The notes under the pieces were generated by a model. That model saw only the letters and a list, made by a program, of their open reading frames with translations. It was not told where the DNA came from and ran no database searches. From Moorena sp. SIO1G6 (GTDB lineage: Bacteria; Cyanobacteriota; Cyanobacteriia; Cyanobacteriales; Coleofasciculaceae), in the NCBI RefSeq assembly GCF_010672795.1, contig NZ_JAAHFZ010000014.1, forward strand, positions 1-52,766: a DNA stretch of 52,766 bases, given 5' to 3'. This document shows positions 10,259-52,762 of this stretch, piece by piece (position 1 is the stretch's first letter; each line of letters opens with the position of its first letter). The translations under genes were made by a program, and so were the position numbers.

Positions 10259-10377
10259 GGTGCGACCCGTTCGCGTAGCGTTGGCAAAGCCAATAGGTGC
10301 GACCCAAGGGCGATTTATTCGCCCTTGGAGGCGCGCACCAATAGGTGCGAATTTAATTCTTAATGGGTCAAGCGCAC
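10259..10377. repeat. Cluster of 2-3 copies of the GGTGCG...CGCACC MITE-like element, plus one copy of the GTTCGCGTAGCG dispersed repeat
   Basis: ggtgcgacccaagggcgatttattcgcccttggaggcgcgcacc at 10297-10339, ggtgcgaatttaattcttaatgggtcaagcgcacc at 10344-10377, and a partial ggtgcgacccgttcgcgtagcg at 10259-10279. Confidence 0.7.
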
Positions 10378-10749: not shown

Positions 10750-10808
10750 TATCTTCAATATATTCTCTATAAAATTTTATTGGATTTGACCAAGTGAGGA
10801 GTCTACTC

Positions 10809-11141
10809 ATGACACAGGCGACCCTGAGTGCAAAATTAAGAATTATTCAACCTTCCGGTCATATTAACGCTTCTAATGCAATTGAGTTTAAAAGTCAGTT
10901 GACAGAAGCTGTGGTGGCTGCTGAGGATTCGGCTTTGTTGGTTGATATGCATCAGTTAGAGTCTCTCGACAGTGCTGGCTTAATGGCCTTAATTCATGGT
11001 CTGAAGCTAGCAAGAAGTCTAGAGAGGCGCTTTGGTCTTTGCTCCGTAGCTCCTTCAATTCGAATTATGCTGGAGCTAACTAAATTAGATGGGGTGTTTG
11101 AGATTTTTGACAGCCATGAGGCTTTTGCTACAGCCCTCTAG
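10809..11141 (+). CDS. STAS-domain anti-sigma-factor antagonist (SpoIIAA-like)
   Basis: LRIIQPSGHINASNAIEFKSQL...LLVDMHQLESLDSAGLMALIHGLKLA includes the conserved phosphorylatable-Ser context DSAGL. The ATG at 10809 follows a GAGGAG RBS. Confidence 0.75.
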   Translation: MTQATLSAKLRIIQPSGHINASNAIEFKSQLTEAVVAAEDSALLVDMHQLESLDSAGLMALIHGLKLARSLERRFGLCSVAPSIRIMLELTKLDGVFEIFDSHEAFATAL

Positions 11142-11387: not shown

Positions 11388-14303
11388 ATGGCAATCACTG
11401 TAGAGGAAATATTAACACCAGACATCAACAGACCAGCCCGTTACTTAGGTAACGAGTTGGGAGCAGTCCATAAACCTTGGGAAGAAGCTGAGGTACGCTG
11501 GGTATTGACTTATCCAGAAATCTATGAAGTGGGGGCTTCTAACTTAGGCCATATCATCCTCTACAATATATTGAATTATCAACCTAGGCAATTATGCGAT
11601 CGCGCCTATCTACCTGCCCCAGACTTGGCAGCTAAATTACGTTCCACTCAAACCCCTCTGTTTGCTGTCGAGAATCGGCGACCTCTGAAAGATTTTGATA
11701 TTATTGGCTTTAGCCTTAGCTATGAATTAGGGGCAACCAACATCTTGGAAATGTTGGATTTGGGAGGAATTCCCCTGACCTGGAAAGACCGTGCTCAGTT
11801 TGATATATCGGAAATACCCCTAATTTTTGCAGGTGGACAAACGGCGACATCGAATCCTGAACCCTATGCTGATTTCTTAGATTTTGTTGATCTTGGCGAT
11901 GGGGAAGAATTGTTGCCAGAGATTGGCTTAGTAATCGAAGAAGGCAAAGCAGCTGGCTTAAGTCGAGAAGCGTTACTCCTGGATTTGGCTCAGATACCAG
12001 GGGTGTATGTCCCCCAATTCTATGATATGACTGAGGATGGCTCAGTTAAACCCAACCGCCCTGATGTGCCGAAGCGGATTTTGCGGCGTGTGGCTACACC
12101 GATGCCTGCCTATGCTATTGGACTAGTACCCTATATCCAAACGGTTCATGACCGACTCAAGATCGAAGTGCGACGGGGCTGTACTCGGGGTTGTCGCTTC
12201 TGCCAACCTGGGATGCTGACTCGACCAGCGCGGGATGTGGAACCAGAAAAAGTGGTGGAAGCTATTGAACAAGGGATGCGTGCTACAGGGTATAACGAGT
12301 TTTCCCTTCTATCCCTGAGTTGTTCGGATTACCTGGCTCTACCAGCGGTGGGGATGGAAATCAAAAATCGTCTTAAGGATCAGAATATTTCCTTGTCCCT
12401 ACCGAGTCAGCGGGTAGACCGCTTTGATGAGAATATTGCCAATATCCTAGGGGGCAATCGGCAGAGTGGCTTGACCTTTGCCCCAGAAGCAGGAACTCAG
12501 CGGATGCGGGATATTGTTAATAAGGGACTGACTAATGAAGAACTGCTCAGGGGAGTAAAGACGGCATTTGAGCAAGGCTGGGAGAAAGTCAAGCTCTATT
12601 TTATGATTGGTTTGCCCGGTGAAACGGATATGGATGTGTTGGGGATTGCGGAAACGGTGCGTTGGTTGCAGCAGGAGTGCCGTGCTAAAGGCAGAAAAAC
12701 CATTAAGTTTAACATAACTGTTTCTAATTTTACCCCAAAACCTCACACCCCATTCCAGTGGCATTCCGTATCGACTTCGGAGTTTGAACGCAAGCAGGAA
12801 TTACTCAAACAAGTATTTGGTCAGATCAGGGGGGTGAAGGTTAATTACACCGATGTTCGGATTTCGGCCATGGAAGATTTCGTGGGACGGGGTGACAGAC
12901 GCTTAAGTGCGGTGGTGCGCCGTGCTTGGGAATTGGGGGCAGGGATGGACTCCTGGATGGAAAGCTTGGATCGGGCATTTGCTGCTTGGGAAAATGCGAT
13001 CGCTTCATCAGGTCTGACCTGGAAATATCGCCAAGTAGAAAATGGCGAATGGAACGTGATGGCGGGTGTAGAAGAGTTGCAAGTTGGAAGGTTGTTCGCG
13101 AAGCGTGGCCAAAAGGCCAAGGTTGAAAGTTCAGAGCAACCAGCTAACCTACAACCAGCTAACCGACAACCAACTAACCGACAACCAACTAACCTTCAAC
13201 CAACTAACCTTCAACCAGCTAACCTTCAACCAACTAACCTTCAACCAACTAACCTTCAACCTTCTAACCTTCAACCTTCTAACCTTCAACCTTCTAACCT
13301 TCAACCTTCTAACCTTCAACCTTCTAACCTTCAACCAGCTAACCTTCAACCAGCTAACCTTCAACCGTCAACCCTTAACGCCCTTGATGCTCCCTTGCCT
13401 TGGGATCATATTGATACGGGAATTGATAAGAATTGGCTCAAGGAAGATTTACAACGGGCGTTAGATGCAGCAACGGTACCGGATTGTTCCTTTGATGGGT
13501 GTTCTCACTGTGGTGTGTGTGGGATTGATTTTGGTCATAATGTGGTGATTGACCCGCCACAGATTCCGCAATTTGCTGGTCACTTTAAACCCAATACTAA
13601 TAAGGATCAGCGGCTGCGGGTTTGGTTTGGAAAGTTGGGGGATATGACCTTGTTGGGTCATCTGGATTTGGCAAGTCTGTTTGAGAGAGCAGTAAGACGG
13701 GCGTCACTGCCAATTCGATATAGTGGGGGGTTTCGGGCTAATGCTCGGATTATGATTGCTAATGCGTTGCCCTTGGGAGCGTCTAGCAGTGGGGAGATTG
13801 TGGAGTTTGAGTTAACTGAGAAAATGCCAGTTGAGGAGTTTAGGGAAAGGCTGGTGTCTCAGTTGCCTAAAGAGATTCCGGTGTATGGGGTTGAAGCAGT
13901 GGATTTGAAGGAACCTGCGGGAACTCAGCTGTTGGAGAGAGCTGAGTATTTGATTCGAGTTGAGGTAATATCAGAAGCGTCTTGGGAAGAGTGGCAGGGT
14001 TGGATTGAAGCAATCAAAGGTAGTAAGGAAATTTGGTGGGAGCGGTTTACGAAGTCGGGGAAGAAGCAGTGGGTGAATTTATGCGATCGCTTATTTGACT
14101 TCGAGGTGATCGAACCCCAAAAATCCAAAGATGGTGAAGAGGAGGTTGCGGAGTCTGGGGTGGTTTTGCGGTATGTGGGGAGTTGTTTGAATGATGGCAC
14201 GATGTTGCGACCAGAGCACATTATTTATATGTTGGAGCAGGTGGCGCAGCGGGAGTTTCGTTTGTTGCATGTTCATCGGCAACGGTTGATTCTGCGCAAT
14301 TGA
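11388..14303 (+). CDS. Fused radical-SAM protein (B12-binding-like N-domain + radical SAM core, TIGR03960-type) joined by a repeat linker to a TIGR03936/DUF2344-like C-terminal domain
   Basis: The start MAITVEEILTPDINRPARYLGNELGAV is typical. The Cys cluster is CTRGCRFCQPG. After the in-frame NLQPT tandem repeat the C-terminal module carries CSHCGVCG. Confidence 0.8.
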   Translation: MAITVEEILTPDINRPARYLGNELGAVHKPWEEAEVRWVLTYPEIYEVGASNLGHIILYNILNYQPRQLCDRAYLPAPDLAAKLRSTQTPLFAVENRRPLKDFDIIGFSLSYELGATNILEMLDLGGIPLTWKDRAQFDISEIPLIFAGGQTATSNPEPYADFLDFVDLGDGEELLPEIGLVIEEGKAAGLSREALLLDLAQIPGVYVPQFYDMTEDGSVKPNRPDVPKRILRRVATPMPAYAIGLVPYIQTVHDRLKIEVRRGCTRGCRFCQPGMLTRPARDVEPEKVVEAIEQGMRATGYNEFSLLSLSCSDYLALPAVGMEIKNRLKDQNISLSLPSQRVDRFDENIANILGGNRQSGLTFAPEAGTQRMRDIVNKGLTNEELLRGVKTAFEQGWEKVKLYFMIGLPGETDMDVLGIAETVRWLQQECRAKGRKTIKFNITVSNFTPKPHTPFQWHSVSTSEFERKQELLKQVFGQIRGVKVNYTDVRISAMEDFVGRGDRRLSAVVRRAWELGAGMDSWMESLDRAFAAWENAIASSGLTWKYRQVENGEWNVMAGVEELQVGRLFAKRGQKAKVESSEQPANLQPANRQPTNRQPTNLQPTNLQPANLQPTNLQPTNLQPSNLQPSNLQPSNLQPSNLQPSNLQPANLQPANLQPSTLNALDAPLPWDHIDTGIDKNWLKEDLQRALDAATVPDCSFDGCSHCGVCGIDFGHNVVIDPPQIPQFAGHFKPNTNKDQRLRVWFGKLGDMTLLGHLDLASLFERAVRRASLPIRYSGGFRANARIMIANALPLGASSSGEIVEFELTEKMPVEEFRERLVSQLPKEIPVYGVEAVDLKEPAGTQLLERAEYLIRVEVISEASWEEWQGWIEAIKGSKEIWWERFTKSGKKQWVNLCDRLFDFEVIEPQKSKDGEEEVAESGVVLRYVGSCLNDGTMLRPEHIIYMLEQVAQREFRLLHVHRQRLILRN
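13138..13375 (+). repeat. In-frame 15-bp tandem repeat (~16 copies, AACCTTCAACC[A/T][A/T]CT) encoding (N-L-Q-P-[TAS])n inside the radical-SAM fusion
   Basis: Seen directly. The ORFs 13084-13464(+) and 13149-13364(-) are out-of-frame readings of the same repeat. Confidence 0.9.
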
Positions 14304-14646: not shown

Positions 14647-15516
14647 CTAACAATTATTATTTTTAATCCTGCCATTAGGCATAATAGTGTTACAGAAAAT
14701 AGCATCATTTAAGTCAGCCTTAGCTAATTTAGCCTTTTTAAGATTAGCATGGCTGAAATTAGCCTCACTCAAATCAGCATCATGAAAGTCAACACCTTCT
14801 AAATTGGCATAACTTAGGTTGGCGGCTCTCAAGTCAGTATTATACAGTCTTGCACCACTCAAATTAGCATGACTAAGGTTAGCGCCACACAGTTCTTCAT
14901 AACCTAGGTTGACATTTTTCAAGTCTAAACCGCTTAAGTCAGCCTCGGCACAAATAAAGATTGCTCCGGCTTTTGATGGGTTAAATCCAGTCGGAAACTC
15001 AGTGTATGACGTATAGATAGCTTTGGTAAAATTTATACTACTCAGGTCAGCTTTTTTCCAGCCATCAACCCCTAGCATACGGGCATAACTGAGGTTAGCA
15101 TTGCTCAGGTCAGAATCACCTACGTAAACCTCACATAAGGTAGCATAACTAAAATTGGCATCCCTGAGCTTACTAGTAGCTATATAGATTACAGATAAAT
15201 CCGCATAACTCAGATCAGTACCACTAAAATCACAGTTTTCCAAGGTTGATTCAGAGGCTACTATATGACTCAAGTTAGCCTTAGTAAGGTTAGAATTTTC
15301 GATAGTGGTTTCGTATAGGTAAGCATTCCTCAAGTTAGCATGACTTAGATCTACATCATCCCAAGTAGCTTCCTCTAAATCAGCATTACTCAAGTCCGCA
15401 TTTTTTAGACAAACACCCTTGAAATTAGTACTTTTTAAGTTAGCCTTTTTCAAATTAATACCAGAAAAATCTCTTTCACCGGCTTCGTAGCGTTTTAGGA
15501 AGTCATCACGATTCAT
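14647..15516 (-). CDS. Pentapeptide-repeat protein
   Basis: 289 aa dominated by A(D/N)LSxANLxxA pentads (ADLSNADLEEA, ANLSHANLSGARL...). Confidence 0.85.
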   Translation of the reverse strand: MNRDDFLKRYEAGERDFSGINLKKANLKSTNFKGVCLKNADLSNADLEEATWDDVDLSHANLRNAYLYETTIENSNLTKANLSHIVASESTLENCDFSGTDLSYADLSVIYIATSKLRDANFSYATLCEVYVGDSDLSNANLSYARMLGVDGWKKADLSSINFTKAIYTSYTEFPTGFNPSKAGAIFICAEADLSGLDLKNVNLGYEELCGANLSHANLSGARLYNTDLRAANLSYANLEGVDFHDADLSEANFSHANLKKAKLAKADLNDAIFCNTIMPNGRIKNNNC

Positions 15517-16167: not shown

Positions 16168-16641
16168 ATGAATACAACTGAGCGTAAAACAGAGAAGAAA
16201 ATGGAAGTGCCTAGAACAACTAGTGAAGTGATTCGCATCAAGCCCCAACAGTTTATTCATGTGCTAGACAACAATACTGGTGTTACGCGACTGGAGGTTG
16301 GTCCTCAAACCATTACCCTTCGGGATCACGAGCGGCTGATCTTAAAACCTGAACCGATGATTATTGTGCCGCCTCGATATTATTGTGTGGTGGCTAATCC
16401 ATTACTCCGGGATGAAGACGGTCAACCCATTGCTGATCAGCATGGTCAAATTCGACTGCGCTACGGTGATCTGGAAATTCGTTTCGCGCAAGATCCGTTT
16501 CCCCTTTATCCAAACGAGAAACTGGTAGGGGATTTGACACTCCCCGTTCTTCTAGGACGGGGAGTGTCAAAGGCAGAAAATATAGCCATTGAGTCTACAG
16601 GTCAGGCAACAGCAGAAGCAAGAGCTAAGGAATACTCTTAA
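16168..16641 (+). pseudogene. Major vault protein (MVP) homolog, N-terminal fragment (MVP repeat 1-2)
   Basis: IRIKPQQFIHVLDNNTGVTRLEVGPQTI...VPPRYYCVVANP...[27 protein letters not shown] aligns almost residue-for-residue with the N-terminus of eukaryotic MVP ([28 protein letters not shown]...VPPRHYCTVANP...[27 protein letters not shown]). The homology ends near 16533-16560, where the IS-associated palindrome begins. Confidence 0.7.
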
Positions 16642-18329
16642 ACCGTCATCAATCGGGATAAAACCGAATAAAACGGCCAAGGTGCATTTTATTGATGTCT
16701 GAGTGAGGAGCGGTCAAGTAGCAATTGGAGTCAAGCCTCCCGCTCATCTATCTAGACGTTCCTCACATCCCGGTGAGGAGTTCCTTAAAAGCTTGAGTTT
16801 TGGCATGCTTGCGGTCAAGCCATCCTAGCTTAACCGCGTCAGCTAAAGTCAAATCCATACCTTCTAAGAAACGCGCAGTACGACGCAACAATACTGCCTG
16901 CACTTCAACCCTAGTCATAAACCGGGAGATTCCTTGATCTGTACCACGAGCAAGGATATTCTTCGCAGCATTGTGATCAGCCTGCAACACGACCCCATTA
17001 AATCTGATAAAACTGTCCCCAATCCTTGCTCCCAATAAGGTGCCAGAAAAGGAGTCAATTTGCGACGTGTAGCTTGGCTGGACTTCTGTCACAACCGAAC
17101 CAGTCCAATTAGCCCATTTCTGCAAGGAGTACCGCATTTCTCCTTTCATCCAGCTATTCAACTTGCGAGACATAGCCTTTGACTGGCGTTTATTTTTGAT
17201 TGGTTGCGTTAAATCCTCAGCAAAAATTCTTAGAGATTCTCCTTTGAAGAGGGATTTAGAAGCAGCCCCTATAATCGCCCTCAACTCTGATTGATCTCTT
17301 CTGTAACGACTGTTTTCTGTTTTTCGACTCAGATTATTTTTCAGTATCCGAGCTGATTTAGCTGGATCTATTTTTTCTAGCTTCCTATGTATTGCCCAGA
17401 GCTTTCCTCTGTTCCGATTTTTGGCGCATATTCGATGGCCAAAAGGCCACGCTACGCGAACGGATTTTATGGTTGCTATTTTGCCCAGGTTCTTCCCGTG
17501 TGCCTGACCATCTGAATCATAAAAAGCCTCGGTGTATCCCTTGTCTACTCCTATCGCTCGACGTTCAGGAGGAATCTCAGCTGTCCCGTGATTAACCAAA
17601 AAATGAATCTCAAATCTTGCCAGTAGAGAGTTGTATATTAGTCTAATCTGTCCTTTAATATTTCGATTAGACCTAACTATTAGTTTGTTTCTTTTTCCTC
17701 TTCTGATTCCAGCTAATTCCAATTGATAAGTATAACGAGACAATCGTTTACACGAGTATCCTCCTTGTTGGTATACAACTTGATTCTTGACCCAAGAATG
17801 TCCTCTCTGAAACTCTTTCCTTACAAGTCTGTGCAATAGTGGATTATCCAGAAAAGCTGAAGTTTTGAGTTGCTTAGAGATATCCTTTCTGATCTTCTGG
17901 TTTTCCTTTCCAGGAAACCTCTTATAGATCTTTTTTATGACTGCCTCAATGGAAGCCGCTTGTTGAGCTGTGATAGTTTTAGCTACATCACTGACAGTCC
18001 ATTCCATTAACTTGGAAGGCAAGCCCAGGGACTCAGGCTTCCTGAAGTCCCTGACTTCTGGGTAGGCTTTTTTCCAGTCAAGTCCCCAATGACTTATACT
18101 ACCCAGCTTGTTGTAAGACTCAGACCTGACGACGCCTAGTTTTTTCATCGTAGACAACAGCTCAAGCTCAACCGACTTAGCTATCCCTACAACTGGGACG
18201 ACCTGAGTCGATATCTTCTTTACTGCGCCTACTTTCTTTTGCATCATCAACGGTGTGTACAGCTTTTGCTATATACTGCCATTATAGTCTAGCGCTATAA
18301 AATTGTCAATGTCCAGTTCGCACTATTAA
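16533..18329 (-). mobile_element. IS200/IS605-family TnpB-only element inserted in the MVP gene (the ends are approximate)
   Basis: tnpB lies on the minus strand. The 14-bp perfect palindrome TTTGACACTCCCCG..CGGGGAGTGTCAAA at 16533-16571 shares CGGGGAGTGTCAAA with the 3' end of the other TnpB element (5500-5513). MVP-homologous coding sequence resumes at about 18340. Confidence 0.5.
16763..18250 (-). CDS. tnpB: TnpB-like RNA-guided endonuclease / IS605 OrfB-family transposase accessory protein (long form, zinc-finger cysteines absent)
   Basis: 495 aa. A RuvC-like triad is spaced in the standard way (AIGVDKG ... RIFAEDLT ... VLQADHNAAKNIL). No Cys pairs lie between RuvC-II and RuvC-III. No tnpA is present. 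Confidence 0.7.
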   Translation of the reverse strand: MMMQKKVGAVKKISTQVVPVVGIAKSVELELLSTMKKLGVVRSESYNKLGSISHWGLDWKKAYPEVRDFRKPESLGLPSKLMEWTVSDVAKTITAQQAASIEAVIKKIYKRFPGKENQKIRKDISKQLKTSAFLDNPLLHRLVRKEFQRGHSWVKNQVVYQQGGYSCKRLSRYTYQLELAGIRRGKRNKLIVRSNRNIKGQIRLIYNSLLARFEIHFLVNHGTAEIPPERRAIGVDKGYTEAFYDSDGQAHGKNLGKIATIKSVRVAWPFGHRICAKNRNRGKLWAIHRKLEKIDPAKSARILKNNLSRKTENSRYRRDQSELRAIIGAASKSLFKGESLRIFAEDLTQPIKNKRQSKAMSRKLNSWMKGEMRYSLQKWANWTGSVVTEVQPSYTSQIDSFSGTLLGARIGDSFIRFNGVVLQADHNAAKNILARGTDQGISRFMTRVEVQAVLLRRTARFLEGMDLTLADAVKLGWLDRKHAKTQAFKELLTGM

Positions 18330-21298: not shown

Positions 21299-21436
21299 AC
21301 TATGCGATTAGCCCGAAGGGCTACGCTACGCTCCGGAAGCGTTTCGGCAAAGCCGACGCTACGCGAACGCAAAGCGTGGCCTACGGCCTCAGCTTCCGCG
21401 CTTATGCGATTAGCCCGAAGGGCTACGCTACGCGAT
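21299..21436. repeat. Composite repeat: two copies of TATGCGATTAGCCCGAAGGGCTACGCTACGC flanking copies of the GCTACGCGAACG / GCGTGGCCTACGGCC dispersed repeat
   Basis: Seen directly. The ORFs 21202-21480(-) and 21302-21523(+) are artefacts of this repeat. Confidence 0.75.
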
Positions 21437-24749: not shown

Positions 24750-24838
24750 TTAAAGTTAGCAGGTTAAAGGTTGTAACTAGCAATTACTAACTACCAACTA
24801 GCAACTATTAACTACCAACTAACAACTAAAAACTAACG
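24750..24838. repeat. Heptamer-type tandem repeats (AACTACC/AACTAGC/AACTAAC) in the rplB-rpsS spacer
   Basis: aactaccaactagcaactattaactaccaactaacaactaaaaactaac. Confidence 0.7.
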
Positions 24839-29337: not shown

Positions 29338-29578
29338 AGGATGAAGCATGAAGGATGAAGGATCTACTAAGAGCCGTCAGCTGACTCGCTACTTAAAAAT
29401 CTAGGCTTGCCAGCTATCAGCTGGAAGCCCCTGTAGATTAGAGCATCAGTTCGAGCAATAATCAGCTCAGTATATGCCAAACGGTCCTTGGGCCAACCTA
29501 GGATTGATCGGATTAGCTGATTAACCAATTCATGACATACTTCATACTTCATACTTCATACTTTATATTTCATACTTC
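29337..29578. repeat. STRR-like heptamer repeats within the rpsH-rplF spacer (GAAGGAT/GAAGCAT x5; CATACTT x6)
   Basis: aaggatgaagcatgaaggatgaaggatc at 29337-29364; catacttcatacttcatacttcatactttatatttcatacttc at 29536-29578. The same GAAGGAT repeat recurs at 1566 and 39696. Confidence 0.8.
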
Positions 29579-41061: not shown

Positions 41062-41200
41062 ATTCTGATGGAATTGATTGCGGTATTAGCCGCATTTGTC
41101 ACAAAAAGAGCGTTCGCGTAGCGTGACCTTTGGTCAATCGCGCTTACCTAAAAGCCTTACCTGATCTGGATTTAATCAAAGTGAAGCCCAGACTCGAAGA

Positions 41201-43771: not shown

Positions 43772-45127
43772 GTGATGACTATTGATCAGGTACTTGACAT
43801 CCTCAAAAGTGTTGAGAAAATCAAGTTGACTCCACTTCAGGAATGGATACTGCACCAAGCCTGGGAAGGAAAAACCTATACCGATATGGCGATCGAAGCA
43901 CACTATGGTCCTGAATACCTCAGAAAGACTGCCTATAAGTTGTGGCGATTACTGGGAGATATTTTTGGCAAAGCGATCACCAAGACCAATTTCCGGAACA
44001 CCCTGGAGACAACCCCGATTACTCCCTACTATCAAGAGATAATTGAGCAATATTACCGCCGTCAATGCCTACGTCAAATTGCTGAATTTCCCAGTGGAGC
44101 ACTTCCCCTACCATCTCAGCTTTATATAAAGCGTCCTCCTATTGAAGAGCTTTGCTATCAAGCCATCCAGCAACCTGGGAGTTTGCTCCGGATTACAGGA
44201 CCAAAAGAGACAGGAAAAACCTCTTTGCTGCTGCGAATATTAGACCAGGCAAGAGAAAAACAATATCACAGAGTATACCTCAATTTTGACCAAGCCGAAA
44301 CCGCAATTTTAAGTAATTTAGACCGGCTATTGCGCTGGTTATGTGTTAACGTCAGTTACCAACTCCAGCTTCCCCACCAACTGGATGACTATTGGGATAA
44401 AGACCTAGGCAGTAAGGTCAGCTGTATGAGTTACTTACAAGAACATATCCTAGAAAAAATACACCATCCCCTCGTTTTGGCAATGGATCAAGTTCATCAC
44501 CTGTTTGAGCATGCCCAAACTGCTAAAGATTTTTTGCCCTTATTGCGCTCTTGGCATGAGGAAGCTAAACAACTACCGGTGTGGCGAAAGCTGCGGGTGA
44601 TTGTGGTTTACTCGACAGAAATTTATGTTGCTCTGGAAACTTCCCAATCTCCGTTTAATGTGGGATTACCGATTAAGTTACCCGAGTTTAACAAACAGCA
44701 AATCCAGCAGTTAGCGCAGCTTTATAGATTACATTGGTCAAATAGTGAAGCTGCTGAGAAACTGATGGCTATGGTGGGAGGACATCCGGGATTAGTGCAG
44801 CTTGCTCTCTATCATTTGGCTTATCATAACATTAGCCTAGAACAATTACTCGCTGAAGCAGCTACTGCTACGGGAATTTATAGTGACTATTTGCGGCAAC
44901 ACTTGAGTGTACTCAGGGCAAATCCTGATTTAGCTACTACTCTTAAACAGGTGGTTATAGCAGATAGGGGAGTTGAACTAGATCCAATCAGTATCTATAA
45001 GTTACAGAGTATGGGTTTGGTGAGTGTTCAGAGAAATCAAGTCACACTCTGTTGTAATTTATATCGTCAGTATTTTTTAGAACACCTTGATATGTTGAAG
45101 GTTGAAGGTTTAAGGTTTAAGGTTTAA
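43772..45127 (+). CDS. HTH + AAA-like (P-loop NTPase, AAA_35-type) domain protein
   Basis: The N-terminal LTPLQEWILHQAWEGKTYTDMA... is a LuxR-like HTH. Walker A is GPKETGKTS and Walker B is LVLAMDQV. Confidence 0.7.
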   Translation: MMTIDQVLDILKSVEKIKLTPLQEWILHQAWEGKTYTDMAIEAHYGPEYLRKTAYKLWRLLGDIFGKAITKTNFRNTLETTPITPYYQEIIEQYYRRQCLRQIAEFPSGALPLPSQLYIKRPPIEELCYQAIQQPGSLLRITGPKETGKTSLLLRILDQAREKQYHRVYLNFDQAETAILSNLDRLLRWLCVNVSYQLQLPHQLDDYWDKDLGSKVSCMSYLQEHILEKIHHPLVLAMDQVHHLFEHAQTAKDFLPLLRSWHEEAKQLPVWRKLRVIVVYSTEIYVALETSQSPFNVGLPIKLPEFNKQQIQQLAQLYRLHWSNSEAAEKLMAMVGGHPGLVQLALYHLAYHNISLEQLLAEAATATGIYSDYLRQHLSVLRANPDLATTLKQVVIADRGVELDPISIYKLQSMGLVSVQRNQVTLCCNLYRQYFLEHLDMLKVEGLRFKV

Positions 45128-45146
45128 GGTTTAAGGTTTAAGGTTA
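45097..45146. repeat. Heptamer tandem repeat (AAGGTTT x6) spanning the stop codon of the AAA-like gene
   Basis: gaaggttgaaggtttaaggtttaaggtttaaggtttaaggtt. Confidence 0.8.
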
Positions 45147-47393: not shown

Positions 47394-47444
47394 TGGGGAG
47401 ATGGGGAGATGGGGAGATGGGGAGATGGGGAGATGGGGAGATCA
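47394..47444. repeat. Octamer tandem repeat (GGGGAGAT x6)
   Basis: gggtggggagatggggagatggggagatggggagatggggagatcag. Confidence 0.85.
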
Positions 47445-49168: not shown

Positions 49169-52100
49169 TTGATTGGCACTATGTACTATATTGGTAAAAG
49201 CTATCTCAAGAAAGGAAAAAAAAAGAACAATAAGAAAGTAAAAAATAAAAATATTATTCGGGAATCAGAGCAGTTACGGCCTATTCGAAATTCCCAAACC
49301 TTGGAAGCGATCGCAGAAAACACTAAACCAGAAATTACCCCAGATTTTGAATTAAAAAAATATCAGGAAGCACTCCTAGAGAGCTATGGTAATCTCAAAT
49401 TGGATAGTTTGGATACTAGTGGCTGTGCTTATAATGAACTAAAACTCTGGAATATATTTATCCACCAAAATGTGCAAGAGGTTCATGACTTGATGCCGGA
49501 GGGGATTCATGAACTGCCTAAGGATTATTATCAAAAACTGCAAGAGAGTGGTGAATTAGATATCGAAATTGACCAAAAGGAGTTGCAACGAGCTAGAAAG
49601 GATTATTATCAACAGCCAATTAAATCCGTATTGGATGTAATTAAGGACTCTCAAGGCTATCGCTATTTGGTGGTTTTAGGAGACCCAGGCTCTGGTAAAT
49701 CTACCTTGCTGCAATATTTAGCATTGGAGTGGGCAAGAACTGATCTAACTACTGAAAGTTCTCTACGGATTCCGTTACTGATTGACTTACCCACTTATAT
49801 CCGGAATCGCGATAGTGGACAGTGTCAGAATTTCTTGGAATTCTGCCATCAAAGTAGTGGAACGATATGTCATCTCAATCAAAATAAACTTGATGATAAG
49901 TTAAAGGCGGGTATTGTCTTAGTGATGTTTGATGGCTTGGATGAAGTGTTTGAGCCAGGGAAACGAGAGGATATAATTACTGATATTCATCGCTTTACGA
50001 ATAATTATCCTAAGGTAAGAGTAATTGTGACATCTCGGGTAATTGGTTATAAACCTCAACGGCTACGGGATGCTGATTTTCGTCATGTAATGCTCCAAGA
50101 CTTGGAGTCGGAACAAATTCAAACGTTTATCCAGCAGTGGCATGAGTTAACCTTTACTGATCAAGTCGATAAAGTTAGGAAACAGGAGCGCTTACAAAAA
50201 GCAATAAAGACATCCTCTCGGATTCGAGAACTGGCGCAAAATCCCCTATTACTAACCATGATGGCAATCCTGAACCGCAATCAAGAATTGCCTCGTGACC
50301 GCTCTGAACTCTATAACCAATCTTCTCGGTTACTGCTCCATCAATGGGATGTGGAACTAGCATTACTAGAAGATAATCCTGTTGATCCGAAGACTATTGA
50401 TTATCAAGATAAGCAACAGATATTGGGAAAAGTGGCAGATTTCATGCAGGGTAATCAAGGGGGATTAGCGGGAAATCTGATTAGTGGGGAAGATTTAGAA
50501 AGAATTATCAAAGAGGAGCTGAAATTACGGGAGGTTACTAATCCTAAAGCTGTTGCTAAGGTAATGATTAATCAGTTGTGTACCCGCAATTTTATCTTCT
50601 GTTCAATGGGAGCCAATTACTACGCTTTTGTGCATCGGACATTTTTGAACTATTTCTGTGCTCGGGAATTGGTCAGGAAATTTGAGAAAAAGCAGGAGAT
50701 TTCCCTAGCACAGTTGAAAACTGAGGTATTTGGTAAGCACTGGCGGGATGAATATTGGCATGAAGCGCTCCAGTTGATTGTGGGCATGGTTGATTCTACC
50801 AAAGCTGGAGAGATTATTGAGTATTTGATGGAACAAGGTGGAGTAGAGGATGATTTTAATAATTTATTTCTGGCAGGGGATTGTTTATCTGAGGTTAGGA
50901 ATCGGTATGAGATTAAATCAACGAATATTGGATTACTGAATCGCGTCAAAGACTTAATTCATTATGATCTAAATTCTACTGATAACAAGTATGGAGATGA
51001 GGCCAACTTAGTCCGTGATATTCGCACTAAAGCTGTTGTAGCAGTAGCCACCCATTGGCAAGACCACCGAGATACCTTAGCCCTACTTAAAAAATTGGCT
51101 CGCTCGGATGCTGATAGGTATGTGCGAGTTAGAGCAATTGAACAGTTAGTTCAAGGTTACAAAGACCACCGAGATACCTTAGCCCTACTTAAAAAATTGG
51201 CTCGCTCTGATACGGATTTGTGGGTGCGAGCTACAGCAATTGAACAGTTAGCTAAAGGTTACAAAGACCACCGAGATACCTTAGCCATACTTCAAGAATT
51301 GGCTCGCTCTGATACGGATTTGTGGGTGCGATGTAGAGCAATTGAACAGTTAGCTAAAGGTTACAAAGACCACCGAGATACCTTAGCCATACTTAAACAA
51401 TCGGCTCGCTCTGATACTGATTCGGAGGTGCGAATTACAGCAATTGAACAGTTAGCTCAAGGTTACAAAGACCACCAATATACCTTAGCACTACTTGAAC
51501 AATCGGCTCGCTGTGATACTGATTCGGAGGTGCGAGTTAGAGCAATTGAACAGTTAGTTCAAGCTTACAAAGACCACCTAGATACCTTAGACATACTTCA
51601 AGAATTGGCTCGCTATAATACTGATTCGTGGGTGCGAGGTACAGCAATTGAACAGTTAGCTAAAGGTTACAAAGACCACCGAGATACCTTAGCCATACTT
51701 AAACAATCGGCTCGCTGTGATCAAGATTGGCAGGTGCGAGTTAGAGCAATTGAACAGTTAGCTCAAGGTTACAAAGACCACCGAGATACCTTAGCCCTAC
51801 TTCAAGAATTGGCTCGCTGTGATACTGATTCGGATGTTCGATGTAAAGCAATTGAACAGTTAGCTAAAAGTTACAAAGACCAGCGAGATACCATAGCCAT
51901 ACTTCAAGAATTGGCTCGCTCTGATACTGATTCGTGGGTAAGAATTACAGCAATTGAACAGTTAGCTAAAGGTTACAAAGACCACCGAGATACCATAGCC
52001 CTACTTCAACAATGGGCTCGCTGTGATACTGATTCGTGGGTACGAGTTACAGCAATTGAACAGTTAGCTAAAGGTTACAAAGACCACCGAGATACCATAG

Positions 52101-52762
52101 CCCTACTTCAACAATGGGCTCGCTATAATACTGATTCGAGTGTGCGAGTTAGAGCAATTGAACAGTTAGCTAAAGGTTACAAAGACCACCGAGATACCAT
52201 AGCCCTACTTCAACAATGGGCTCGCTCTGATACTGATTGGCAGGTGCGATGTACAGCAATTGAACAGTTAGCTAAACGTTACCAAGACCACCGAGATACC
52301 TTGGCCCTACTTCAAGAATCGGCTCGCTCTGATACTGATTCGGATGTGCGAGTTACAGCAATTAAACAGTTAGCTAAACGTTACCAAGACCACCGAGATA
52401 CCTTAGCCCTACTTCAAGAATCGGCTCGCTCTGATACTGATTCGGATGTGCGAGGTAGAGCAATTGAACTGTTAGCTCAAGGTTGGCACGATCGCGTAGC
52501 GTGGCCTACGGCCAATCAGCCTTGGTTATTTGAATTTTTATGCGATCGCATTCTCCATGACCCCTATGATCCTAATAAGGATAAGAAAAACGTGATTGTC
52601 TATGGACTAGAAAACAATCCTCGACAAGCAGCCCTTAATGCCATCCTCAAATATTATCCTAACCATTCCCAAACCCGATCCTTATTACAGGATAGAGCAG
52701 AGCATGACTCCGATCCTGAACTGCGGAAGTTTGCTAAGGATAATTTAGAATGTAGAATTTAG
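49169..52762 (+). CDS. NLR-like STAND NTPase: NACHT domain + 14 tandem HEAT (PBS-lyase/E-Z type) repeats
   Basis: Walker A is VVLGDPGSGKSTLLQYLA and Walker B is VLVMFDGLDEV. The pre-NACHT motif is KKYQEALLESYGNLKLDSLD. Then come 14 units of the 34-aa repeat HRDTLALLxxLARSDTDxxVRxxAIEQLAKGYKD. The true start is uncertain: the first ~25 codons are K-rich translated A-tracts, and the first ATG is at 49181. Confidence 0.8.
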   Translation: MIGTMYYIGKSYLKKGKKKNNKKVKNKNIIRESEQLRPIRNSQTLEAIAENTKPEITPDFELKKYQEALLESYGNLKLDSLDTSGCAYNELKLWNIFIHQNVQEVHDLMPEGIHELPKDYYQKLQESGELDIEIDQKELQRARKDYYQQPIKSVLDVIKDSQGYRYLVVLGDPGSGKSTLLQYLALEWARTDLTTESSLRIPLLIDLPTYIRNRDSGQCQNFLEFCHQSSGTICHLNQNKLDDKLKAGIVLVMFDGLDEVFEPGKREDIITDIHRFTNNYPKVRVIVTSRVIGYKPQRLRDADFRHVMLQDLESEQIQTFIQQWHELTFTDQVDKVRKQERLQKAIKTSSRIRELAQNPLLLTMMAILNRNQELPRDRSELYNQSSRLLLHQWDVELALLEDNPVDPKTIDYQDKQQILGKVADFMQGNQGGLAGNLISGEDLERIIKEELKLREVTNPKAVAKVMINQLCTRNFIFCSMGANYYAFVHRTFLNYFCARELVRKFEKKQEISLAQLKTEVFGKHWRDEYWHEALQLIVGMVDSTKAGEIIEYLMEQGGVEDDFNNLFLAGDCLSEVRNRYEIKSTNIGLLNRVKDLIHYDLNSTDNKYGDEANLVRDIRTKAVVAVATHWQDHRDTLALLKKLARSDADRYVRVRAIEQLVQGYKDHRDTLALLKKLARSDTDLWVRATAIEQLAKGYKDHRDTLAILQELARSDTDLWVRCRAIEQLAKGYKDHRDTLAILKQSARSDTDSEVRITAIEQLAQGYKDHQYTLALLEQSARCDTDSEVRVRAIEQLVQAYKDHLDTLDILQELARYNTDSWVRGTAIEQLAKGYKDHRDTLAILKQSARCDQDWQVRVRAIEQLAQGYKDHRDTLALLQELARCDTDSDVRCKAIEQLAKSYKDQRDTIAILQELARSDTDSWVRITAIEQLAKGYKDHRDTIALLQQWARCDTDSWVRVTAIEQLAKGYKDHRDTIALLQQWARYNTDSSVRVRAIEQLAKGYKDHRDTIALLQQWARSDTDWQVRCTAIEQLAKRYQDHRDTLALLQESARSDTDSDVRVTAIKQLAKRYQDHRDTLALLQESARSDTDSDVRGRAIELLAQGWHDRVAWPTANQPWLFEFLCDRILHDPYDPNKDKKNVIVYGLENNPRQAALNAILKYYPNHSQTRSLLQDRAEHDSDPELRKFAKDNLECRI
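51053..52485 (+). repeat. 14 x 102-bp near-identical in-frame tandem repeats (HEAT-like) with variation confined to a few codons
   Basis: Seen directly. The units are >90% identical at the DNA level. The variable codons map to repeat positions ~9-10 (KK/QE/KQ/EQ/QQ), 12 (L/S/W), 15-16 (SD/CD/YN), 19-20 and 23-24 (RVR/RAT/RCR/RIT/RGT/RCK/RVT). Confidence 0.9.

Follow-up and report, generated by a model that had tools for sequence, protein, structure and literature searches.

In a 52,766-nucleotide stretch of the Moorena sp. SIO1G6 genome (contig NZ_JAAHFZ010000014.1; hereafter the window), we analyzed a 971-residue open reading frame (ORF) that encodes a radical S-adenosylmethionine (SAM) protein in which an N-terminal TIGR03960 module is fused to a C-terminal TIGR03936/DUF2344 module, and that carries a tandem array of 15-bp units together with a copy of a 24-nt dispersed element. 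Moorena, formerly Moorea, belongs to the family Coleofasciculaceae. We found that these repeats occupy a hypervariable loop, that the number of units differs between strains, and that the 24-nt element has exact filled and empty sites in this loop. We consider it probable that repeat DNA, kept in frame, fills a permissive and probably disordered surface loop within the TIGR03960 module. The route by which the repeats came into the gene is invasion of, or expansion within, this permissive loop, and not gene fusion.

The two modules were identified in the whole 971-residue protein with NCBIfam, in which TIGR03960 scored 597.5 bits (cutoff 462.3) and TIGR03936 scored 185.8 bits (cutoff 71.9), the latter matching residues 742-967 at profile positions 1-208 of 209. 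Pfam detected Radical_SAM_N2, Radical_SAM (2.5e-19), and DUF2344 (PF10105, 6.7e-49). Both module assignments made in an earlier, sequence-only reading of the window (TIGR03960-like for the N-terminal part, TIGR03936/DUF2344-like for the C-terminal part) are correct according to these searches. The radical-SAM cluster motif CX3CX2C (CTRGCRFC, with C265, C269, and C272) is invariant in 40 cyanobacterial orthologues, and in a database search the ORF product was 100% identical to a protein of the Moorea sp. SIO1G6 metagenome-assembled genome (MAG). Literature searches returned nothing on the function of the DUF2344/TIGR03960 enzyme.

To place the repeats relative to the module boundary, we compared the protein with its homologues. 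The TIGR03960 match is split in two at the loop, with residues 8-552 corresponding to profile positions 3-551 of 605. We then searched residues 1-740 against 1.84 billion representative proteins and sized the best 150, most of which are 40-46% identical to the query and belong to other lineages; 119 were of fused size (at least 800 residues) and 23 of stand-alone size (580-710 residues). In an alignment of the query with 19 stand-alone and 7 fused non-cyanobacterial homologues, every homologue contained the motif LPW(D/E)xI...DCx4-5CxxCGxC after the position of the loop, the stand-alone proteins terminated 0-44 residues past the Cys motif, and the loop itself was essentially absent. Because the stand-alone proteins continue through the LPWDHID...Cys segment past the loop site, this alignment places the repeats about 55 residues inside the N-terminal module and not at the module junction. 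At the junction itself, residues F715, G716, H717, N718, V720, P727, F729, G731, and P735 of the linker are invariant in the 40 cyanobacterial orthologues. Both Pfam domains are found in one polypeptide in all 120 of the best database hits (all cyanobacterial, 857-971 residues), and at 80 out of 80 genome loci the match covers both modules of the query. As judged from the sequences compared, the fusion is old, widespread across many lineages and phyla, and predates the repeats by far.

Within the loop, variability is extreme. No column between E554 and L670 is invariant in the 40 orthologues, while the flanks, with the motifs GEWNV(M/F) and LDAPLPWDHI, are, and across 63 genomic loci and 120 proteins the shortest loops have about 8 residues (Calothrix) and the longest about 107 (Moorena). 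An insertion of some length is retained at this position in every cyanobacterial orthologue, and the non-cyanobacterial homologues have none. Among Moorena strains, the pentapeptide encoded by the 15-bp unit (QPxNL) occurs 16 times in the window, 15 times in P0002 and P0003, 14 times at the corresponding site of the closed chromosome of JHB (CP017708.2), about nine times in SIO4A3, six times in SIO3G5, and only twice in M. producens PAL, where the inverted left arm of the repeat is missing as well. Most of these alleles, including that of the window, come from short-read MAGs, and the JHB and PAL genomes are closed. Three to four units are found in a sister lineage of about 72% identity, so that the motif is older than the genus. 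Other cyanobacteria fill the same loop with heptamer-derived repeats of their own, CCCAACT and TCCCCAC in Nostoc and GGCAGGG and ACCACCT in Symploca. Moreover, Nostoc sp. NMS2 (L056) contains, relative to other Nostoc strains, two in-frame copies of a different palindromic hairpin repeat, ACAGACGCGATTAATCGCGT, which shows that repeats of another family can enter this loop in Nostocaceae as well. The sequence-only reading had expected a segment that is length-polymorphic between strains, and this is what we observed, with 2-16 units among Moorena and the 24-nt element present or absent. It had also held that a linker sequence conserved in distant cyanobacteria would speak against a repeat origin; we found no amino-acid conservation of the loop in other cyanobacteria. 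The ortholog comparison it had proposed thus bears out its view of the content, which is repeat-derived and variable, and contradicts its view of the gene structure, since the orthologs are widely fused and share a conserved true linker.

The array that makes up most of the loop was detected by Tandem Repeats Finder as a 15-bp repeat at positions 13137-13366 (15.3 copies, 95% matches, no indels, score 320). In the frame of the ORF its unit reads CAA CCN NCT AAC CTT, that is Q-P-(A/T/S)-N-(L/R); 14 of the 16 units fit the pattern [A/S/T]NL, and R replaces L in two. Units 9-13, 4-5, 7-8, and 14-15 form blocks of identical sequence, which points to recent duplication within the array. Each 15-mer pairs two AACCTTC heptamers (8+7), and an inverted-repeat search resolved the loop into a left arm (LQVGRLKVES), a spacer, and a right arm ((QPxNL)n). 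Period-7 sequence is also found in the loops as AACCTTC repeated 6.6 times in the array of SIO3I8 (L003) and as GAAGGTT repeated three times in the left arm, and GTTGAAG occurs as a plain heptamer array at position 45094 of the window. Short tandem arrays with a period of 7 or 8 number more than 25 in the window and are mostly intergenic (e.g. 1140-1212, 24775-24837, 29536-29578, 45094-45145, and 47394-47442); this landscape resembles that of the short tandemly repeated repetitive (STRR) sequences, here in a non-heterocystous cyanobacterium.

The left arm is interrupted by the 24-nt element. The 12-nt tail of this element, TTCGCGWAGCGT (at most one mismatch), occurs eight times in the 52.8-kb window against a mean of 0.11 in shuffled sequence, and none of 100 shuffles reached eight. 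Each tail is followed by a hairpin of 4-6 bp whose stem sequence varies between copies while its complementarity is kept, and all eight copies that we folded as single-stranded DNA (seven from the window and one from locus L001) formed the same two hairpins. Seven of the eight copies in the window carry GCGTAGCGT followed by the 4-6 bp stem (a GTAG tag), and the copy in the radical-SAM gene has GAAG. In frame 0 the consensus GCG TAG contains a stop codon, and the radical-SAM copy reads GCG AAG. It could be supposed that this A was selected after insertion to avoid an in-frame TAG; this idea is undercut by an intergenic copy with the same A-variant (GCGAAGC), which may simply be a subfamily able to survive or be fixed at the radical-SAM site. 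The family is dispersed, with further copies in other Moorena loci beyond the eight in the window. No Rfam family matched anywhere in the window at the gathering score. The description of the ORF as holding a dispersed-repeat copy and a 16-fold pentapeptide repeat was accurate, and the genomic-repeat origin assigned to the segment agrees with the intergenic occurrence of the same array and 24-nt elements described below for the ruvX-rpsO spacer of JHB. The 28-mer quoted for the dispersed copy occurs only once (13094-13121), its core being the 24-nt element, and its equation with an element at 17436-17465 holds for the family, although that copy lies in reverse orientation and differs at one tail position and in loop orientation.

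We found exact filled and empty sites for the element at two loci. By DNA comparison, the radical-SAM loop has the empty site GGAAGGTTG/AAGGTTGAA (the slash marks the insertion point, here and below) in M. bouillonii PNG, SS36440, SIO3H5, and JHB, and the same empty site with one substitution (AAT for AAG) in SIOASIH (L083), whereas in the window and in SIO3I8 it is filled by exactly 24 nt without target duplication. In a TnpB-like gene of the window (16763-18250, minus strand; Pfam Cas12f1-like TNB domain), the element accounts for eight extra in-frame residues compared with the M. producens JHB orthologue (98% identity; L082:18936-20390), which has the exact empty site AAAATCCG/ATCGAATATG, a split CGATCG. 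Loops of other strains contain further members of the family: a reverse-orientation copy inside the array, GGCCAAAAGGCCACGCTACGCGAA, read as GQKATLRE and amplified together with the unit to give a 39-nt repeat; a copy with a different hairpin loop sequence (GLSATLRE); a copy in another reading frame (WPKGHATR); and a related 24-nt variant (PYGNAKGE). All of these loop members lie at the same position of the unit, CTT/CAACC (GGTTG/AAG on the other strand), so that within the heptamer arrays, and only there, the element has an apparent preference for this target. A universal GTTG/AAG target was considered and rejected, as the copies outside arrays lie at other G/A sites, some of them resembling the highly iterated palindrome HIP1. 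The GTAG tag with its hairpin, the insertion without target duplication, and the reported repetitive extragenic palindromic (REP) sequences of cyanobacteria (PMC3733652, PMC6006769) together suggest that the element is REP-like or similar to small dispersed repeats (SDRs) and may move as single-stranded DNA in an HUH- or RAYT-like manner (RAYT, REP-associated tyrosine transposase).

The array is not confined to the radical-SAM gene. In the ruvX-rpsO intergenic spacer of M. producens JHB (L119:3020-3210), which we reached by querying proteins with the low-complexity peptide of the loop (four candidates, two hits; not a census of host proteins), the 15-bp array recurs with the same two kinds of 24-nt element in the identical position. 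This array is annotated as a hypothetical protein of 79 residues, named 'Pentapeptide repeat-containing' in UniRef, an annotation that is probably an artefact of repeat DNA. A metagenome scan for two consecutive units returned 35 stretches, none of which (0 out of 35) had the flanking motifs of the radical-SAM loop (GEWN, PWDxI) within 240 nt of the array. The inverted arm lies at most 150 nt upstream of the array in 23 of the 35 stretches and downstream in none. Eight of the 35 arrays lie within ORFs of at least 200 residues, each reading ...LKV.RL.VE.S...NLQP..., and for six of these the host protein, in three cases a histidine kinase, was confirmed with Pfam (Table 1). The metagenome contigs with in-frame arrays of the form ...LKVGRLNVES...NLQPxNLQP... 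(L091, L095, L096, L101, L107, and L110) have 46-50% GC and contain HIP1 sites.

We propose that the loop, which extends between the end of the module core (the GEWNVM motif) and the C-terminal PWDHID/Cys4 motif, was filled by repeat DNA in three layers and is translated in frame. A palindromic heptamer-repeat element would form the first layer, its left arm of the GTTGAAG type (...LQVGRLKVES) and its right arm of the CTTCAAC type. The right arm would then have expanded in frame as 15-bp units, each of two heptamers plus one base, to give (QPxNL)n, presumably by replication slippage or unequal recombination. As a third layer, the 24-nt double-hairpin REP/SDR-like element would have inserted precisely at the GGTTG/AAGG supplied by the arms. 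Because the enzyme must stay intact, only stop-free variants with a length that is a multiple of three would persist. The loop would have little or no sequence-specific function and would act at most as a flexible spacer. A bolder extension, which we regard as speculative and rather doubtful, is a two-tier selfish system in which CTT/CAACC arrays serve as specific landing pads for the single-stranded-DNA 24-nt element, the composite of array and element, free of stops in whichever frames it occupies, spreads into permissive loops of essential enzymes in Coleofasciculaceae-like cyanobacteria, and (A/S/T)NLxx arrays could seed pentapeptide-repeat proteins.

Other origins and roles of the repeat have to be weighed against this proposal. 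The sequence-only reading took the segment for the linker of the two modules, a former intergenic spacer that had been colonised by repeats and became coding when adjacent genes fused. The composite of 15-bp array and 24-nt elements does sit in a true intergenic spacer elsewhere in Moorena, and the stand-alone size of the N-terminal module in 23 of the best 150 representatives lends some support to the accompanying remark that the modules are often separate genes. However, the fused form dominates (119 of 150), also among distant lineages in which the loop is missing altogether, the loop precedes the end of the N-terminal module by about 55 residues, the stand-alone proteins themselves include the PWDHID...Cys4 segment that follows it, conservation is seen at the real junction (residues 713-741), and the array is a feature of the Moorena clade within an ancient fusion. 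Loop position, conserved junction, and ancient fusion refute both the linker and the captured spacer, and we regard this origin as almost certainly wrong. No more credible is the idea that the array is an artefact of a mis-assembled tandem repeat; the window does come from a MAG, and 240 bp of near-identical 15-mers are hard for short-read assembly, but the closed chromosome of JHB has its 14-unit array at this very position, and M. bouillonii PNG as well as several independent assemblies contain related arrays. Alternatively, the loop could be a flexible tether that connects the radical-SAM core with the C-terminal Cys-rich motif and that is selected for length and varies adaptively. Such a role fits the retention of some insertion in all cyanobacterial orthologues and in no non-cyanobacterial homologue, and an abundance of Pro, Gln, Asn, Ser, and Thr that is typical of flexible linkers. 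It is nevertheless unlikely, given the range of about 8-107 residues with no conserved sequence, the two units without a left arm on which M. producens PAL gets by, a content that mirrors each genome's own repeat families, and the presence of the same element in unrelated enzymes. The flexible, low-constraint tether of the sequence-only reading stands as to low constraint (the loop is hypervariable, with no invariant column), but not as a tether between modules.

We also considered whether the 16 pentapeptides fold into a right-handed beta-solenoid of four coils, of the type of pentapeptide-repeat (Rfr) proteins, and would thus be a new folded domain. Sixteen units would be exactly four coils, cyanobacteria are rich in pentapeptide-repeat proteins (a neighbouring gene encodes one), phmmer aligned the units in register ([A/S/T]-N-L-x-x) with solved pentapeptide-repeat proteins (4yc5, 4e-25; 2j8k, 7.5e-13), and NCBIfam gave weak matches to Alr5209 and HetL. 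On the other hand, the loop repeat had no match to Pfam PF00805 and stayed below the threshold of PF13599 (22.8 against a cutoff of 38), and other low-complexity families of five-residue repeats (keratin B2, extensin) matched it equally weakly. AlphaFold2 predicted no secondary structure for the loop in the full-length protein (40-sequence alignment; loop predicted local distance difference test score, pLDDT, 22-28) and none in the isolated 111-residue segment (predicted template modelling score 0.12). Furthermore, the core L is replaced by R in some units and, in other strains, by Q across whole runs of units (NQQPT), the conserved N is replaced by T in others, the copy number of 2-16 and interrupting eight-residue insertions do not suit a solenoid, and every unit contains a Pro that never occurs at that position in the aligned solenoids. 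We therefore think a folded solenoid very unlikely. Some points nonetheless weigh against a permissive, disordered loop filled by mobile repeats. The repeat fits the A(N/D)Lxx pattern and has the strong phmmer E-values against solved beta-solenoids given above; the full-length AlphaFold2 model is poor (mean pLDDT 48.7), which makes the low confidence in the loop weak evidence; we infer disorder and neutrality, and the loop peptide is a predicted translation; exact copy numbers may be mis-assembled in the short-read MAGs, for which the closed JHB and PAL genomes bracket the range; and we connected the 24-nt element with no transposase, Y1 transposases not having been searched for. With these points taken into account, in-frame filling of a permissive loop by repeat DNA is the reading that we retain.

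Table 1. Coordinates of the repeat-bearing gene, its segments, the dispersed element copies, and hosts of related arrays (positions refer to the window).
Feature	Position	Strand	Remarks
Radical-SAM fusion ORF, 971 aa	11388..14303	+	TIGR03960 (B12-binding-like radical SAM) + TIGR03936/DUF2344; host of the repeats
Hypervariable loop, A559-A665	13062..13382	+	Between conserved GEWNVM and LDAPLPWDHID motifs; placed inside TIGR03960 module
Left arm, part 1 (GTTGCAAGTTGGAAGGTTG)	13076..13094	+	Inverted copy of repeat unit, 84% complementary; translated ...LQVGRL
24-nt double-hairpin dispersed element TTCGCGAAGCGTGGCCAAAAGGCC	13095..13118	+	Putatively REP/SDR-like; codon-aligned, F570-A577, FAKRGQKA
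Left arm, part 2 (AAGGTTGAAAGTT)	13119..13131	+	92% complementary to repeat units; translated KVES
Right arm, 16 tandem 15-bp units, consensus CAACCATCTAACCTT	13137..13376	+	Translated (QP[A/T/S]N[L/R]) x16, Q584-L663
Example peptide spanning the loop, VESSEQPANLQPANR			
TIGR03960 C-terminal segment after the loop (LPWDHID..., C700, C705, C708, C711)	13395..13523	+	Present in stand-alone TIGR03960 proteins; residues invariant in cyanobacteria
True inter-module linker, residues ~713-741	13524..13610	+	DUF2344/TIGR03936 begins at residue 742; linker residues conserved
Intergenic element copy	10270..10292	+	Orthologous copy present in JHB
Second in-frame element copy, in TnpB-like gene (16763..18250, -)	17437..17460	-	Eight-residue insertion relative to JHB orthologue
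Intergenic nest of 3-4 adjacent or nested hairpin element copies and variants	21324..21436	-	Stems CGGC/GCCG, AGCCC/GGGCT, GGCC/GGCC
Intergenic element copy	41113..41136	+	Excision would restore GCGATCGC (HIP1) site, judging from the flanks only
Third in-ORF element copy, in NACHT + HEAT-repeat protein	52491..52514	+	Translated RVAWPTAN
Metagenome host: hybrid GAF histidine kinase			Array between HATPase_c and REC
Metagenome host: MASE1-GAF kinase			Array inside GAF domain
Metagenome host: LeuA/CimA-like enzyme			Array inside HMGL domain
Metagenome host: PyrD			Array in frame
Metagenome host: ETR1-like kinase			Array inside HATPase_c
Metagenome host: AnmK			Array in frame

Several neighbouring features of the window were recorded alongside. 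The radical-SAM gene is preceded by a gene for a STAS-domain protein (10794-11141) and followed by one for a genuine pentapeptide-repeat protein of 289 residues (14647-15516, minus strand; Pfam PF00805, 1.8e-58), in contrast to the loop repeat. Adjoining the TnpB-like gene is a 157-residue ORF (16168-16641, plus strand), at the same position as a 157-residue JHB gene that matches Pfam Vault_2. At this position Moorena sp. SIOASIH has an intact 879-residue homologue of the major vault protein (L083:17653-20292; Vault repeats and MVP_shoulder), which suggests that both the window and JHB carry a truncated vault gene; homologues of vault proteins are unusual in bacteria. The NACHT and HEAT-repeat protein (1197 residues, 49169-52762, plus strand) contains 14 tandem 102-bp repeats, each of 34 residues (HEAT), at 51060-52484 with 89% identity, and the element copy read as RVAWPTAN lies directly after this array.

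Our findings have several implications. They correct a tempting misreading of repeats as the scar of a gene fusion and provide a well-resolved natural case of repeat DNA becoming protein sequence, in which one loop of a conserved enzyme records the repeat families of each cyanobacterial genome. In Moorena, this loop offers exact before-and-after sites for a 24-nt mobile element together with a coding minisatellite of 2 to 16 units, which makes the locus a ready strain-typing marker for a genus important for natural products. The case also calls for caution in annotation and in the drawing of domain boundaries, since NCBIfam splits the domain and UniRef labels an intergenic copy 'pentapeptide repeat-containing'. 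The filled and empty sites are clean evidence for an SDR-like element outside Nostocaceae, where such elements are reported absent (PMC5861425), and they offer a way into genome-scale work on REP/SDR-like elements beyond this family and on the specificity of their targets. Should the two-tier selfish system exist, it would be a cyanobacterial counterpart of the Rickettsia palindromic elements (RPEs) in a lineage where SDR-like elements are reported absent.

Ogata et al. in 2000 reportedly described RPEs as inserted in frame in protein genes (cited in PMC3733652 and PMC3184786). Like RPEs, the Moorena element is a dispersed palindromic repeat that occurs both in intergenic sequence and in frame in conserved functional proteins, to which it adds peptide at permissive sites. 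Unlike RPEs, which are fixed at ~100-150 bp, it consists of heptamer tandem repeats with arms of variable length and local expansion, and its array is in turn the target of a second, 24-nt element. In-frame repeat insertions are thus already known, both as RPEs and as intragenic REPs (PMC3733652, PMC3184786). REP elements and REPINs are mobilised by RAYT (TnpA_REP) transposases (PMC3733652, PMC3116915, PMC6006769), and GTAG-tagged REPs together with several classes of TnpA_REP transposase have been reported in cyanobacteria (PMC3733652, PMC6006769). The 24-nt element shares with these REPs a GTAG beside a short GC-rich hairpin, over-representation, the lack of target duplication, and occasional residence in ORFs. 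It differs from them in that its family is very short (23-26 nt) and combines a constant 3-bp GNA mini-hairpin with a variable hairpin of 4-6 bp, and in that the copy in the radical-SAM gene carries GAAG instead of GTAG.

The small dispersed repeats SDR1-8 of Nostoc are said to have been described by Elhai et al. in 2008 as sequences of 21-27 nt whose mobility was inferred from filled and empty sites. The 24-nt element falls into this size class and has exact-boundary filled and empty sites of the same kind, in the radical-SAM loop and the TnpB-like gene, and some copies lie in split HIP1-like sites (CG/ATCG), as reported for SDR5. The 2008 survey reportedly recorded no SDR-like repeats beyond Nostocaceae (PMC5861425). 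Unlike the Nostoc SDRs, our element is hosted by Moorena (Coleofasciculaceae), and the likeness drawn here concerns size class and site behaviour. The arms partly resemble the STRR heptanucleotide tandem repeats of filamentous cyanobacteria, reportedly described by Mazel et al. in 1990, in being heptamer-derived arrays (GTTGAAG and CTTCAAC) in a window rich in period-7 arrays; unlike STRRs, the array is coding, has been recast as a 15-bp (8+7) unit read in frame, and is accompanied by an inverted arm. Finally, the encoded peptide shares with the Rfr proteins a five-residue periodicity and, in most units of the window, [A/S/T]-N-L at three diagnostic positions, and it differs from them in remaining below Pfam thresholds, in having no predicted fold, in carrying a Pro in each unit, and in tolerating polar and charged residues in the core.

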